This document shows positions 28,377 through 60,250 of a stretch of 64,000 nt of DNA, piece by piece. Source of the stretch: Bacteroidales bacterium (lineage in GTDB: Bacteria > Bacteroidota > Bacteroidia > Bacteroidales > UBA10428); assembly GCA_016938235.1 (NCBI GenBank), contig JAFGVA010000159.1, positions 1,296-65,295 on the forward strand, read 5' to 3'. Position 1 is the stretch's first letter. Every line of letters begins with the position of its first letter. Position numbers and translations under genes: made by a program. The notes under the pieces were generated by a model, which worked only from the letters and a program-made list of their open reading frames with translations, searched no databases and was not told the DNA's origin.

Positions 28377-28384
28377 TAAATTTG
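28377..28384 (+). promoter_or_regulatory. Bacteroidota -7 promoter box (TAnnTTTG) upstream of the tRNA-Pro leader array
   Basis: TAAATTTG is a perfect match to TAnnTTTG. It lies 17 nt before the first tRNA-like unit. Confidence 0.5.
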
Positions 28385-28401: not shown

Positions 28402-28611
28402 CGGGGCATAGCGCTTCCGATAGTTATCGGGACCGGTGAGCGAGTTGAGGATGTCCCGCAGAAATTATAGAATTATTTCGACCGCAAAACGTGAAACTAA
28501 TATTTACGGGGCATAGCGCTCCCGATAGTTATCGGGACCGGTAAGTGAGTTGAGGATGTTCCGCAGACATTATAGAATTATTTCGACTGCAAAACGTGAA
28601 ACTAATATTTA
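28402..28611 (+). repeat. Two head-to-tail 105-bp units, each an anticodon-less tRNA-Pro look-alike (~57 nt) plus spacer, abutting tRNA-Pro
   Basis: Units 28402..28506 and 28507..28611 are 99/105 identical. Each starts with CGGGGCATAGCGC, the first 13 nt of the tRNA. Next comes the hairpin T(T/C)CCGAT-AGTT-ATCGGGA, then CCGGT, and later TGT(C/T)CCG, which can pair back to CGGGGCA. Confidence 0.9.
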
Positions 28612-28685
28612 CGGGGCATAGCGCAGTCCGGTAGCGCGCTACGTTCGGGACGTAGAGGTCGTGGGTTCGAATCCCGCTGCCCCGA
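28612..28685 (+). tRNA. tRNA-Pro (anticodon CGG)
   Basis: Cloverleaf folded by hand: acceptor CGGGGCA/TGCCCCG, D-stem GCGC/GCGC, anticodon stem CTACG/CGTAG with loop TTCGGGA (CGG at 28646..28648), T-arm GTGGG-TTCGAAT-CCCGC, discriminator A. CCA is not encoded. Confidence 0.9.
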
Positions 28686-28695
28686 CAAAAGAAAA

Positions 28696-46773: not shown

Positions 46774-46818
46774 GATTTAGAAAAATGGGAAAAGGGTATG
46801 TAGTTTTAAAAAAAACTC

Positions 46819-46826
46819 TATCTTTG
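46819..46826 (+). promoter_or_regulatory. -7 promoter box (TATCTTTG) upstream of the tRNA-Cys leader array
   Basis: Perfect TAnnTTTG match, 13 nt before the first tRNA-like unit. Confidence 0.5.
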
Positions 46827-46839
46827 CAACCCGAATAAT

Positions 46840-46982
46840 GATTTCGTGTCCGCCGGTTGGCGGATAGACAGTGGTAAAAAAAATACCGGTTTCGTGTCCG
46901 CCGGTTGGCGGATAGGCAGTGGTAAAAAAATACCGGTTTCGTGTCCGCCGGTTGGCGGATAGACAGTGGTAAAAAAAATACC
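46840..46982 (+). repeat. Three head-to-tail 48/47/48-bp units, each a 5'-half tRNA-Cys look-alike, abutting tRNA-Cys
   Basis: Units are 46840..46887, 46888..46934 and 46935..46982. Consensus is GGTTTCGTG + TCCGCC-GGTT-GGCGGA + TAG(A/G)CAGTGGT + A7-8 + TACC. The first 9 nt and the TAGGCAGTGGT block are shared with the tRNA that starts at 46983. Confidence 0.9.
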
Positions 46983-47053
46983 GGTTTCGTGGCCGAGTGG
47001 CTAGGCAGTGGTCTGCAAAACCATGTACAGCGGTTCGAATCCGCTCGAAACCT
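46983..47053 (+). tRNA. tRNA-Cys (anticodon GCA)
   Basis: Acceptor GGTTTCG/CGAAACC, D-arm GCC-GAGTGGCTA-GGC, anticodon stem GTGGT/ACCAT with loop CTGCAAA (GCA at 47015..47017), T-arm AGCGG-TTCGAAT-CCGCT, discriminator T. CCA is not encoded. Confidence 0.9.
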
Positions 47054-47064
47054 CAGGCAGGAAA

Positions 47065-47091
47065 GCTCATCGAACCGATGGGCTTTTTTTT
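47065..47091 (+). terminator. Rho-independent terminator after tRNA-Cys
   Basis: GCTCATCG-AAC-CGATGGGC followed by TTTTTTTT. Confidence 0.75.
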
Positions 47092-47470
47092 ATACAAAGT
47101 ATTTTATCTGACAGGAAAAAATGTTCTTTGTTGGGGATCGGAATGTGAAGATTTCTTTGTTCAGGCGATCCTGGGTATATGTTTCGGTTATATTCCAAAC
47201 CTGAAAACAGATTTCGTGCAACGATAATCGGTTGGTTAGTTTGAGGTATTTTTCTGCGATATGTGCCACGAAACAAATCAGCACAGGTGACTTAATTGAT
47301 TCGTGCTTATGGTGATAAATTGGCCTGGCCTGCAAAACGTGTTTGCTCATCCTGAACGATTCTTCTGCTTACCAAAGCTGATGATAACGGTGGATTACCA
47401 ATTCGTTCGACAGTTGTTGCTCGGTTAAATCGGTACAGTCCCGGAAACAAGACTGTTTTTGTCAAAATAT
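47092..47470 (-). pseudogene. Decayed 3' fragment of an IS1634-like transposase gene (same family as the element at 58116..59666)
   Basis: Hand translation gives CTDLTEQQLSNELVIHRYHQLW*AEESFRMSKHVLQARPIYHHKHESIKSPVLICFVAHIAEKYLKLTNRLSLHEICFQVWNITETYTQDRLNKEIFTFRSPTK. This aligns with residues ~375-485 of the intact transposase and carries an in-frame TAA. The N-terminal ~370 codons and both IS ends are absent. Confidence 0.8.
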
Positions 47471-58115: not shown

Positions 58116-59666
58116 TAACAATTAGTGCGGTAATAAATTCCATTTTGATATTAGCGGTGCAAGTTTACTATTTTGGATTTCCTTGGTAGGCGATCTAAAC
58201 ACAAAGGTTTCTTTGGTCAGATTGTCTTGTATGTGCGTTTCAGTAATGTTCCAAACTAAAAACCGGATTTCACGCAATGATAGCTTTGTAGTCAATTCCA
58301 AGTATTTTTCAGCTATTAGTGCCACAAAACAAATTAGTACATGGGCTTTTATTGCTTCGTGTTTTTGATGGTATATTGGCCTGGTTTGCAAATCAAACTT
58401 GCTCATTCTGAAAGATTGCTCAACGCGCCAAAGCTGGTGATAGCGGTCAATGACCTTCTCGTTGGATAATTGCTGTTCGTTCAAATCGGTACAATATCCC
58501 TTAATGCCCAGCAATAACCTCCTTTTTTCAATCAACACAGTATTTAACTCTATTTTCTCTTTGGTAACCTTCCGGATAAATCGGGTTTTAACTTTCAGTT
58601 CCTGTTTTGCTACCAGCTCCTCGGCTTTTAGTATGAGTTTGTTTAGCTCGTTCAATTCTTTTTTATACCTCTTTAAGGAAAAATCGCATACCAAATCGCC
58701 ATGCTTTGATGGGAAGCGAGCCATTCCCCCGTTTTTCCCGTTCAATGTAGAATGTATCTGTTTTACTAATCCAAGAGTAGCATTTGGTAGCCGGGCGCCC
58801 ACAATGTACGATAGTTCCTTTTTCCTGAGTTCAGCGAGCCTTTCTTCATCGAGCATTGCGGCATCGGCCACAATAACCGGTTTTGTCTGGGGATGTGCTG
58901 AAATAAACGTTTCAAGCACTGGCAGCATGGTTTTACCTTCAAATGTATTGCCCGCAAATATCTGGTACGACAATGGAAAACCCGATTGGGTAACAAGCAA
59001 ACCGATAACAATCTGCGGCTGCTGCGATTTGTTGTCTTTTGAAAACCCTTGGATTTTAAACTCATCAGCCTTAAAAGACTCAAAATACAGCGTGGTAACA
59101 TCGTACAAAACAAAATAGAAAGGCTCGTTGAACTTTTGCTGTGCTACATTGTAGGCACATTGCTCAATATCTGCCTTATAAATTGTTAATTCAGGAATTT
59201 TACGGTAGATACGCTGCGAATATTTGATGCCAAAATAATGTTGCAACAGTTCTATTGAGCGATATTTTGAAGCAGGTTCAACAAGCCGCATGATGGCCAA
59301 ATCAATCAGTAAGCGTGGCAGGTAGTTTAAACTACATTCTTCGATACATTTCATGAAAAACTGATAAGCAAAATGGTGGGTTACTCCAATACACTCGCCC
59401 CTGTCAACAACCATAAGCTTCTGCTTTTGGACAGGGAATAACGATAACTGAGGGGTGTTATCTTCAATCCAATCAAGCGCCTTTCGTTGCAAAACAGATA
59501 ACTCAATATCGTCTTTTGCACTACCAATATGTTTTAACACCATTGACTTATGGCCAATATACCGTACAACTTGAATTGCAGTTGAGCCCGATTTGGTTTT
59601 AACTTTTCGAATCGAATACATACCCCAAAATTATGCGTTAGTGCGGTAAATACGCACTAATTTTAA
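58116..59666 (-). mobile_element. IS1634-family-like insertion sequence (~1.55 kb), apparently intact
   Basis: Single transposase ORF. A 10-bp perfect terminal inverted core AATTAGTGCG lies at 58120..58129 and, inverted, at 59653..59662 (12/14 over the extended ends). The transposase stop codon lies inside the left IR. No target-site duplication could be resolved, so the ends are approximate. Confidence 0.7.
58122..59621 (-). CDS. IS1634-family DDE transposase
   Basis: N-terminus MYSIRKVKTKSGSTAIQVV matches the usual IS1634-family start. DDE-region motifs are VLYDVTTLYFES, VIVADAAMLDE and YHQLWRVEQSFRMSK. Confidence 0.8.
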   Translation of the reverse strand: MYSIRKVKTKSGSTAIQVVRYIGHKSMVLKHIGSAKDDIELSVLQRKALDWIEDNTPQLSLFPVQKQKLMVVDRGECIGVTHHFAYQFFMKCIEECSLNYLPRLLIDLAIMRLVEPASKYRSIELLQHYFGIKYSQRIYRKIPELTIYKADIEQCAYNVAQQKFNEPFYFVLYDVTTLYFESFKADEFKIQGFSKDNKSQQPQIVIGLLVTQSGFPLSYQIFAGNTFEGKTMLPVLETFISAHPQTKPVIVADAAMLDEERLAELRKKELSYIVGARLPNATLGLVKQIHSTLNGKNGGMARFPSKHGDLVCDFSLKRYKKELNELNKLILKAEELVAKQELKVKTRFIRKVTKEKIELNTVLIEKRRLLLGIKGYCTDLNEQQLSNEKVIDRYHQLWRVEQSFRMSKFDLQTRPIYHQKHEAIKAHVLICFVALIAEKYLELTTKLSLREIRFLVWNITETHIQDNLTKETFVFRSPTKEIQNSKLAPLISKWNLLPH

Positions 59667-60025: not shown

Positions 60026-60031
60026 ACTTAG

Positions 60032-60104
<73 letters not shown>

Positions 60105-60150
60105 ATATATTTTAAATGTTTCATTTCTCTTTAACCGAACTATTTAATTT

Positions 60151-60202
60151 TAGGACTCGTCCTACGAGCTTCTCCCGATGTATATCGGGACTCTACTCCG
60201 CA
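60151..60202 (-). repeat. Single 52-nt 5'-half tRNA-Met look-alike upstream of tRNA-Met
   Basis: The minus strand reads TGCGGAGTAGAG + TCCCGAT-ATAC-ATCGGGA + GA + AGCTCGT + AGGA-CGAG-TCCT + A. It shares TGCGG(G/A)GTAGAG and AGCTCGT with the tRNA located 46 nt downstream. Confidence 0.85.
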
Positions 60203-60242: not shown

Positions 60243-60250
60243 CAAATATA
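60243..60250 (-). promoter_or_regulatory. -7 promoter box (TATATTTG on the minus strand) upstream of the tRNA-Met leader
   Basis: Perfect TAnnTTTG match, 40 nt upstream of the tRNA-like unit. No hairpin + T-run lies between it and the tRNA. Confidence 0.45.

Follow-up and report, generated by a model that had tools for sequence, protein, structure and literature searches.

Tandem partial tRNA-Cys copies with a clamped D region precede tRNA-Cys in a Bacteroidales genome and recur in other Bacteroidota

We analysed a 64,000-nucleotide stretch of DNA (the window; positions 1,296 to 65,295 of contig JAFGVA010000159.1, assembly GCA_016938235.1) from the metagenome-assembled genome (MAG) of an uncultured Bacteroidales bacterium, focusing on the short tandem repeats that precede its tRNA-Cys(GCA) gene. 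The genes at this locus are arranged in the order glnS (minus strand), folB, a gene for a Cys-rich CWC protein, tRNA-Cys, a transposase remnant, pdxA, ruvA and sprA. ARAGORN and Rfam both placed the tRNA at 46983 to 47053 or 47054. Directly upstream are three repeat units of 48, 47 and 48 bp, which are contiguous and in phase with the start of the tRNA, with no base between unit 3 and tRNA position 1 (Table 1). Tandem Repeats Finder reported a repeat at 46842..46995 with a period of 48, 3.2 copies and 95% matches. An initial annotation, made from the sequence alone, had described three contiguous units in phase with tRNA-Cys, and direct reading of the sequence together with all three programs confirmed this layout. 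The A-runs of 8, 7 and 8 nt, the TAGGCAG of unit 2 and the TAGACAG of units 1 and 3 were also read as described, whereas the start of unit 1 had to be corrected to GATTTCGTG from GGTTTCGTG.

Each unit copies roughly positions 1-31 of tRNA-Cys. The tRNA reads GGTTTCG TG GCC GAGT GGC TAGGCA GTGGT CTGCAAA..., and the unit reads GGTTTCG TG (TCC) GCC GGTT GGC (GGA) TAGRCA GTGGT A7-8 TACC, with the inserted triplets in parentheses. As the initial annotation had pointed out, the 5' parts of the tRNA are retained, the D region is rebuilt, and the T arm and 3' acceptor strand are missing; the anticodon is absent as well. Unit 2 is the same as tRNA-Cys at 20/20 scored 5'-derived positions, and unit 1, the edge unit, shows one mismatch to the 5' end of the tRNA. 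Native tRNA-Cys can form a 5-bp alternative helix (U8-A21, G9.U20, G10-C19, C11-G18, C12-G17), and the unit carries a 3-bp insertion (UCC/GGA) on each arm inside this latent D-region helix. The D region had been described as a 6-bp hairpin; the six GC-rich pairs stand, but folding extends them by U8-A and G9.U to effectively 8 bp. This hairpin, which we call the clamp, buries U8 to A21, including the elbow-forming G18 and G19, and leaves two segments single-stranded, the 5' acceptor strand and the anticodon stem's 5' strand. With U8 to A21 locked in the 8-bp hairpin, neither a D arm nor the tRNA core can form in the unit.

A single unit is predicted to fold at -16.7 kcal/mol (z = -2.9). The 16-nt hairpin core occurs in the window only at 46849, 46897 and 46944, with one further match at three mismatches, and shuffled sequences gave an expectation of 0.05. 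The GGTA/TACC stem-loop proposed around the A-run was also predicted by the fold here, but the units of relatives (L062, L200) have no counterpart, so this mini-stem is not a conserved feature; neither is the A-run. Variants with GCCGCC...GGCGGA arms (unit 1 of L220 and pseudogene 2 of L201) suggest that the clamp arose when the GCC and GGC triplets of the arms were duplicated and then altered by point mutations.

Within the 450 nt 5' of tRNA-Cys, TATCTTTG is the sole TAnnTTTG box. It is at -164 from the tRNA and, as previously noted, is a perfect -7 box 13 nt ahead of unit 1. No TAnnTTTG is found inside the units or at the unit-tRNA junction, and an internal promoter at TACCGGTTTCG was rejected owing to its wrong spacing. 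The first terminator after the promoter, a 9-bp hairpin followed by T8, lies beyond the tRNA, in agreement with the initial annotation, and a terminator scan identified none within the array. The plus-strand hairpins are followed by UAGRCAGUGGU and an A-run instead of a U-run and thus are not terminators or attenuators, and a terminator on the antisense strand was rejected, as the minus-strand T-run is 13 nt past the stem. Given the single upstream box, the A-rich sequence after the hairpins and the position of the first terminator, the units are probably part of the tRNA precursor and would be cut off by RNase P. Transcription is presumed to start within 46827..46839, a leader segment homologous to caacccgaacaat in L063 and to caacccgatt... 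in L062/L066. The transcribed leader proposed in the initial annotation therefore fits both the sequence and the comparisons described below (a box only 5' of the first unit, and the spacing in unit-free relatives), with transcription itself predicted from sequence.

Table 1. Positions of the tRNA-Cys array and of the related tRNA-Pro and tRNA-Met features in the window
Feature	Position	Strand	Basis or remark
-7 box of tRNA-Cys, Bacteroidota type, TATCTTTG (perfect TAnnTTTG)	46819..46826	+	sequence, regex scan
Promoter-proximal leader CAACCCGAATAAT (13 nt)	46827..46839	+	homologous to relatives' leaders
Unit 1, 48 bp: GATTTCGTG + TCCGCC-GGTT-GGCGGA + TAGACAGTGGT + A8 + TACC	46840..46887	+	R1 47.2 bits
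Clamp hairpin of unit 1, 8 bp (U8-A, G9.U, UCCGCC/GGCGGA), GGUU loop	46847..46866	+	exact matches, fold
Unit 2, 47 bp: GGTTTCGTG + hairpin + TAGGCAGTGGT + A7 + TACC	46888..46934	+	R1 53.4 bits
Unit 3, 48 bp: GGTTTCGTG + hairpin + TAGACAGTGGT + A8 + TACC	46935..46982	+	R1 50.9 bits
Clamp hairpins of units 2 and 3	46895-46914, 46942-46961	+	same hairpin as unit 1
tRNA-Cys(GCA), intact cloverleaf, CCA not encoded	46983..47054	+	ARAGORN; Rfam RF00005 62.2 bits
Intrinsic terminator AGCTCATCG-AAC-CGATGGGCT (9-bp hairpin) + T8	47064..47091	+	sequence; strong 3' hairpin in fold of 46827-47095
-7 box TAAATTTG of tRNA-Pro	28377-28384	+	upstream of first unit
Two 105-bp units, CGGGGCATAGCGC + T(T/C)CCGAT-AGTT-ATCGGGA + CCGGTAAG(C/T)G...	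28402..28611	+	in phase into tRNA-Pro(CGG)
tRNA-Pro(CGG)	28612-28686	+	
-7 box TATATTTG of tRNA-Met	60250..60243	-	upstream of unit
One unit, GCGGAGTAGAG + TCCCGAT-ATAC-ATCGGGA + ...	60105..60201	-	upstream of tRNA-Met(CAT)
tRNA-Met(CAT)	60104..60031	-	

Logan short-read contigs of the same organism (L058, L059, L060) end or start inside the array. Such breaks are expected from a real repeat, which argues that the array is not an assembly artefact; as a consequence of the same breaks, the copy number of three rests on the MAG assembly.

The initial annotation had named confinement of the repeat to this assembly as evidence of a recent neutral duplication. However, both related and distant Bacteroidota carry the module. 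Close relatives were found through protein look-ups and distant carriers through a metagenome scan, the pattern of which demanded the clamp sequence. In a relative with a FolB 58% identical to that of the window (contigs L061 and L062, JGI sample 3300039062), the promoter TATATTTG is followed by a 48-nt leader and by units of the form CAGTTC(C/T)GTG + TCCGCC-GACT-GGCTGA + TAGGCACAGG(G/A)C + A7-8, with two units in L062 and at least four in L061 before the contig ends. Two further relatives, with FolB 57% and 54% identical, have no units; L063 and L066 are unit-free. In the unit-free L063/L064, a homologous box and a 13-nt spacer directly precede tRNA-Cys. Since the tRNA of the unit-free L063 and L227 starts exactly 13 nt past the box, which is the distance of unit 1 in the window, unit 1 occupies the ancestral position of the tRNA.

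The carriers from the metagenome scan with units upstream of tRNA-Cys are all low-GC contigs. L200, a Bacteroidales-like contig with FolB upstream, has at least four units of 47 bp; L220 has two; L191, L195, L206 and L213 have one each; and L201 has one upstream unit together with three downstream full-length pseudo-tRNA-Cys copies. A single unit also precedes tRNA-Cys in L229. L191, L213 and L201 belong to Chitinophagaceae according to 90%-identity protein clusters, and one or two units are present in several members of this family. FolB synteny additionally led to L018, a Prolixibacteraceae MAG with one unit bearing another clamp, TCCCGA-CCAAA-TCGGGA. With carriers in Bacteroidales, Chitinophagaceae and Prolixibacteraceae, the architecture spans at least three orders, and the number of units per locus is 1, 2, 3 or at least 4. 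In the loci examined, a single perfect TAnnTTTG box is always located upstream of the first unit and never between the units and the tRNA, except that L220 has no perfect box. The unit locus of L191 is identical in three further samples, while L227/L228, whose GlnS falls into the same 90% cluster as that of L191, lack the unit; the existence of such close relatives without a unit indicates that units are gained and lost rapidly. The linkage of folB to tRNA-Cys is conserved across Bacteroidota. A FolB search of species-representative genomes (best match 51% identical) supplied 57 FolB-linked loci as a background set. A covariance model of the clamped unit, R1, detected none in these 57 loci, and approximately 35 of 40 loci from such genomes have a -7 box 17-28 nt before tRNA-Cys and no unit.

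R1 was trained on 16 units, 15 of which come from seven other loci; three of these 15 (L201 pseudogenes 1-3) are downstream of the tRNA. It is defined by the 5' 9 nt of the tRNA, the 8-bp hairpin (U8-A, G9.U, UCCGCC/GGCGGA), and UAGGCA plus the 5' strand of the anticodon stem. R1 units lie on the tRNA strand, usually between the promoter and tRNA-Cys, and the family is defined here and is in no curated collection. The model separates clamped units (38-53 bits; 47-53 bits for those of the window) from the 5' halves of genuine tRNA-Cys (14-28 bits).

The units follow the tRNA of their own genome. Acceptor stems vary among carriers (GGTTTCG, GGTTCCG, GGTCGCG, GGTCCTG, GGTACCT), as do anticodon stems, and the units nevertheless equal their local tRNA at 198/220 scored 5'-derived positions (90%; 11 units). 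The unit tails, by contrast, reach 48% identity to the tRNA in the best alignment, which is the noise level. In the L213 unit, 20/20 of the 5' positions are the same as in the tRNA, compared with 2/30 in the tail. How much of the 3' part can still be recognised differs between units: in L195 and L191 a degenerate anticodon arm and some of the T arm survive, and the others end at about position 31. The first or edge unit is the most degenerate one in the arrays of the window, L200 and L220, as expected of arrays homogenised by unequal exchange. Taken together, these comparisons indicate that units are often duplicated and deleted, that they continue to be homogenised with the gene, and that the clamp is retained despite this; an origin of the units by partial tRNA duplication is well supported.

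These data bear on the explanation that the array results from recent slippage and is wholly neutral, with none of the unit under selection. The 95% identity of the units, the unstable copy number, the assemblies that break in the array and the relatives without a repeat are all compatible with it. However, the same clamped architecture is present in the relative with 58% FolB identity and in two other orders, single old units such as that of L213 are fully tRNA-identical over the 5' 20 positions while their tails cannot be aligned, and the 3-bp extension needs matched changes on both arms. Neutral slippage is largely refuted by these comparative data, and we assign it a low probability.

The units were also compared with known systems. 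ARAGORN calls no unit as a tRNA, and a permissive cmscan of 46780-47110 (E up to 10) matches the tRNA family RF00005 at the true tRNA (46983) only. The D hairpin, with 6 bp and a 4-nt loop, resembles that of tRNA-Sec, but this likeness was judged superficial and discarded, as the unit has no anticodon, variable or T arm. No Rfam family matches the units, either in the whole window at gathering thresholds or in permissive searches of the leader, L016 and L201. The units are contiguous and have no unique spacers, and hence do not constitute a CRISPR array. The ToxI RNA of type III toxin-antitoxin systems similarly consists of tandem units of approximately 36-48 nt in one precursor, with A-rich junctions as possible cleavage sites. 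However, ToxI forms pseudoknots, and its arrays precede a terminator and a gene for a toxN-type endoribonuclease, whereas the present array is directly followed by a tRNA, with the transposase remnant and pdxA as the downstream open reading frames; this comparison was made without a scan of a defence library.

The closest known parallel is the E. coli tyrT operon, in which 178-bp repeats downstream of tRNA-Tyr, each containing its 3' 19 nt, yield rtT RNA (RF00391). The tyrT repeats are co-transcribed, are released by tRNA processing and are thought to have arisen by unequal recombination. Both systems have tandem repeats in a tRNA transcription unit, each with a segment copied from the adjacent tRNA. 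Here, however, the units are 47-48 bp long, lie upstream, copy the 5' third, contain a clamp hairpin and belong to another phylum, and RF00391 gave no match at gathering or permissive thresholds. The units could be trans-acting small RNAs: after RNase P cleavage, the leader would be trimmed to exonuclease-resistant hairpins and cut in the A-runs, generating unit-length RNAs that begin with an unpaired, tRNA-like 5' segment. Such RNAs could sequester a nuclease or a protein that binds tRNA, or could base-pair with RNAs complementary to the 5' strand of the tRNA. In support, an unpaired segment, a strong GC-rich hairpin and an A-rich linker are all present in each unit, and a tandem array would multiply the dose. 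Functional RNAs are also known from the spacers of tRNA operons, namely rtT from the tyrT repeats and the 3'ETS of leuZ in E. coli. Nevertheless, no target, partner protein or conserved seed was identified, and the candidate seed differs with each local tRNA, which would leave the tRNA itself as the target. With a non-conserved A-run and small second stem and a patchy distribution as further counts against it, a small-RNA role seems improbable.

A further group of explanations places the function at the DNA level. In high-GC contigs (L188, L193-L199, L202-L205, L207-L210, L214-L219), we observed a REPIN family, (c)tgtgGTGTCCGCC-tTTa-GGCGGATAGACA with the inverted partner TATCCGGCTAAAGCCGGACACCAC, and L199 has a Y1_Tnp gene, encoding a REP-associated tyrosine transposase (RAYT), between two REPIN copies. 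The units could be palindromes resembling repetitive extragenic palindromic (REP) elements moved by a Y1 enzyme (RAYT or IS200-type), or else integration scars or attachment-site copies. Like REP and REPIN elements, they combine a short GC-rich hairpin with conserved flanks, and the REPIN of these high-GC soil contigs, GTGTCCGCC-N4-GGCGGATAGACA, with its Y1_Tnp gene between two copies, matches the window unit everywhere outside the loop. The halves of a hairpin are not independent, and this match to a 19-nt pattern may therefore be a coincidence. Moreover, REPINs are dispersed, occur as inverted pairs and are associated with a RAYT, whereas the hairpins of the window are direct tandem copies restricted to the leader, and their flanks follow the host tRNA, unlike those of a mobile element with fixed sequence. 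The 64-kb window contains no dispersed copies of the core, and tblastn with the L199 RAYT returned only spurious matches there (E >= 0.8); a REP/RAYT origin was rejected within this scope on both grounds.

Integrating elements commonly make partial tRNA copies (van der Gulik et al. 2023, PMC9897764), leaving a truncated copy as a direct repeat beside the intact gene, which resembles the arrangement described here. An integrase gene lies 3' of tRNA-Cys in L229, making this tRNA an integration site in at least one relative, and insertion sequence (IS) copies are present downstream of tRNA-Cys and tRNA-Met in the window. L229 is, however, the only case of an integrase adjoining tRNA-Cys. Integration scars normally copy the 3' part and flank kilobases of DNA with an integrase (PMC9897764), whereas the present copies derive from the 5' part, abut the gene in tandem and contain a hairpin. 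An attachment-site duplication finds no support at the locus, with 0 bases between unit 3 and the tRNA and no integrase between or beside them (folB and the CWC gene on one side, the DDE transposase remnant and pdxA on the other). For the Cys units, target-site duplication by a mini-element and tandem site-specific integration were both discarded, since the sequence after the hairpin follows the host tRNA and a 47-bp double-stranded circle is an implausible recombination substrate. Overall, we consider a DNA-level element highly improbable.

Related units are present upstream of two other tRNA genes in the window, tRNA-Pro(CGG) and tRNA-Met(CAT), as the initial annotation had recognised, and in both a strong hairpin stands in place of the D loop (Table 1). 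The Pro units keep the first 13 nt of the tRNA, and the hairpin replaces D-loop bases. Their 3' segment ATGT(C/T)CCG can pair with their own CGGGGCAT through G.U pairs and may close the unit into a mini acceptor-like stem. Pro unit 1 has a U.G wobble in its hairpin (TTCCGAT/ATCGGGA), and its pairing is therefore kept only when the plus strand is read as RNA. The tRNA-Met unit includes about 20 duplicated leader nucleotides (GAAACATTTAA...). The orthologous leaders of L221, L222 and L223 (neighbouring gene 81-86% identical), which are 60-130 nt long and contain other 5' hairpins, lack this unit; its absence from these three relatives makes it specific to the lineage of the window.

The Pro and Met hairpins belong to a second type, TCCCGA(T)...(A)TCGGGA. 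This type occupies the D position in the Pro and Met units and in the L018 unit, the anticodon position in the pseudo-tRNA-Cys of L032 (Rikenellaceae) and the T loop in the L201 pseudogenes. It also serves as an intrinsic, partly bidirectional terminator (L227:4809-4826, L228:3059-3076, L028:3476-3492, and the low-GC viral contigs L076, L088 and L092); in L227/L228, a Chitinophagaceae MAG, it is the terminator of tRNA-Cys itself. By a rough estimate from base composition, six copies in about 1.1 Mb of low-GC loci compare with approximately 0.07 expected, a strong over-representation in low-GC Bacteroidota. A scan of viral contigs for TCCCGATN{3,5}ATCGGGA served as a negative control, with none of 120 loci upstream of a tRNA, and further identified the hairpin as a common terminator stem in low-GC contigs. 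The second hairpin is thus a common terminator stem of these genomes that was re-used inside pseudo-tRNA loops.

We next consider what an extra 5' half would do in a tRNA precursor, using nearest-neighbour folding, which ignores tertiary structure, Mg2+ and co-transcriptional order. For a one-unit precursor, the fold with the unit 5' strand on the 3' acceptor strand is predicted at -46.5 kcal/mol, compared with -37.5 kcal/mol for leader plus cloverleaf. In 6/8 loci, the leader captures the 3' acceptor strand with a predicted probability of 0.2-0.99. When the clamp was removed in silico, the native acceptor stem became less probable in five loci, stayed equally probable in two and became slightly more probable in one. 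The benefit of the clamp was clear for the three-unit window array, L195, L206 and L229, and there was none for one or two window units, L191 and L220. According to these models, an extra 5' half is a credible competitor of the tRNA, and the clamp tends to mitigate the competition.

The array is a real, recurrent leader architecture, and neither the full-text literature nor the Rfam entries we searched describe a natural leader of repeated tRNA 5'-half copies. For its meaning, we tentatively favour the explanation that it is a co-transcribed pre-tRNA leader of disabled partial tRNA duplicates, which are clamped harmless and removed by RNase P. A short tandem duplication comprising the last leader bases and roughly positions 1-31 of the tRNA would have placed a second 5' half between the promoter and the gene. 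Slipped-strand misalignment between identical 9-nt and 11-nt blocks would then change the copy number. The whole leader would be transcribed from the single -7 box at 46819 and removed by RNase P at 46983, and the clamp would be the selected part, holding the interfering extra 5' half folded on itself. The resulting cycle would be one of birth, lock and death: mis-pairing copies would be counter-selected unless a local hairpin locks their D (or T) region, and locked copies would be tolerated in the leader, expand and contract by slippage, and finally be deleted. The units would then be by-products and not dedicated regulators. Transcription, removal by RNase P, the slippage mechanism and selection on the clamp are steps that we infer. 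Such a cycle would explain why units are patchily distributed, why they vary in number and decay, why edge units are degenerate and why three tRNAs are involved in one genome. Patchy presence, both among close relatives and in the background set (0/57), is at least as compatible with a disabled duplication that is tolerated as with a dedicated regulator.

Several points weigh against this explanation. The same UCC...GGA clamp in Bacteroidales and Chitinophagales must be either very old or convergent, which a function would explain more simply. Harmful or useless tandem repeats in bacteria are usually deleted fast. Mutation alone would hardly let a unit track the tRNA on both sides of an unconverted clamp. 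In the metagenome examples, conservation of the clamp is partly ascertainment, since the search pattern demanded it. Finally, the folding of one or two window units shows no gain from the clamp, and the folding model neglects the three factors named above.

The alternative is that the units are themselves selected, as a slippage-tunable decoy acting in cis. The free strands of the units would compete for the 3' half of the nascent tRNA and delay its folding or its maturation by RNase P; copy number would set the output of a single-copy tRNA gene, and the clamp would tune the competition without abolishing it. In its wider form, several Bacteroidota orders would use the same logic at tRNA genes present in one copy (Cys, Pro, Met), and in a variant, excised units would serve as tRNA-specific decoys for a tRNA-binding enzyme or toxin. 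The principle has precedents. Leader structure, or pairing between leader and 3' end, is reported to alter RNase P processing (PMC9433436), and synthetic RNase P riboswitches are a further example (PMC7897497); the decoy would work on the same principle. In its favour, unit flanks follow the local tRNA across differing stems while the tails decay, the clamp is kept in three orders, and copy number varies (1, 2, 3 and at least 4). In addition, the models predict strong capture of the 3' acceptor strand in most of the loci folded, and because the T arm still stacks on the acceptor helix in the alternative fold, RNase P could still see the precursor. However, close relatives do well without any unit, the clamp is missing from all of the FolB-linked loci of genome-database species, the Pro units bear their own 3'-acceptor-like strand, so that a free 5' strand is not universal, and nearest-neighbour predictions are crude. 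We therefore regard a cis decoy as rather unlikely, but it keeps a substantial probability because the by-product model explains the shared clamp and the exact tracking of the flanks less well.

Several further observations concern the surroundings of these tRNA genes. Downstream of tRNA-Cys on the plus strand (window 47200-47345), short matches to the tRNA are present: GATTTCGTG at 47211, the complement CACGAAAC at 47268 and CCTGCAAAAC at about 47326. They fall in the transposase-remnant region and may be due to chance. The remnant (47090-47350, minus strand), just past the tRNA-Cys terminator, is 72% identical to the C-terminus of an intact IS4-type DDE transposase (Pfam DDE_Tnp_1) encoded at 58122-59621 (minus strand), approximately 400 nt downstream of tRNA-Met. 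Two of the three tRNAs of the window (Cys and Met) therefore have a copy from one IS family on their 3' side. In L018, arrays of (GGGCGAA/GGGCTGA)n and (GGGATTT/GGAATTT)n are located immediately upstream of the tRNA-Cys promoter (L018:4190-4420).

Other tRNA-Cys-derived copies were also observed. In L201:3764-4158 (minus strand), 2.7 tandem 147-bp copies of a pseudo-tRNA-Cys plus terminator lie downstream of the real tRNA-Cys. Each has a D clamp, and the third is truncated; the two complete ones have an intact CTGCAAA anticodon loop and, in the T loop, the 18-bp perfect palindrome TCCCGATAGCTATCGGGA (a TCCCGAT-AGCT-ATCGGGA hairpin). L229, a close relative of L201 with the integrase gene 3' of tRNA-Cys, lacks the pseudogene copies. 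In Bacteroidales/Rikenellaceae, a nearly full-length pseudo-tRNA-Cys lies upstream of the real gene (L016:9651-9775; L032:13881-14010; L008:3574-3520, minus strand), with a T-loop insertion of about 50 nt containing repeated GARCGAAGYGA / CTCGTGAG motifs. The L008 copy has its own terminator, and in the L032 copy a TCCCGA-GTCC-TCGGGA hairpin replaces the 5' side of the anticodon arm. A small self-cleaving ribozyme in the L016 and L032 inserts was rejected, as Rfam gave no match. These three may represent a separate tRNA-Cys-derived RNA family. The viral contig L070 (3250-5300; GC 0.56) contains GAGCG(A/T)AGCGAG-TCCCGACCTGTCGGGA three times and a related GAACGCAGTGAG-TCCCGATTCAGAATCGGGA; the GAGCGAAGCGAG part of this element resembles the motifs of the L016 and L032 inserts.

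Bacterial tRNA leaders are usually regarded as short and disposable, whereas the leader described here is built from tRNA copies, and the same structural lesion, a clamp burying U8 to A21 together with G18 and G19, recurs across Bacteroidota orders. If the units are disabled duplicates, the arrays would provide a natural record of how mis-pairing partial tRNA copies are neutralised and of the rate at which they are born and lost. If they are decoys, they would represent a new, slippage-tunable control of how much a single-copy tRNA gene yields. Under both readings, short-read assemblies break at the arrays beside tRNA genes, and the units, which could pass for fragments of tRNAs or for scars of integration, are now open to searches with a covariance model.

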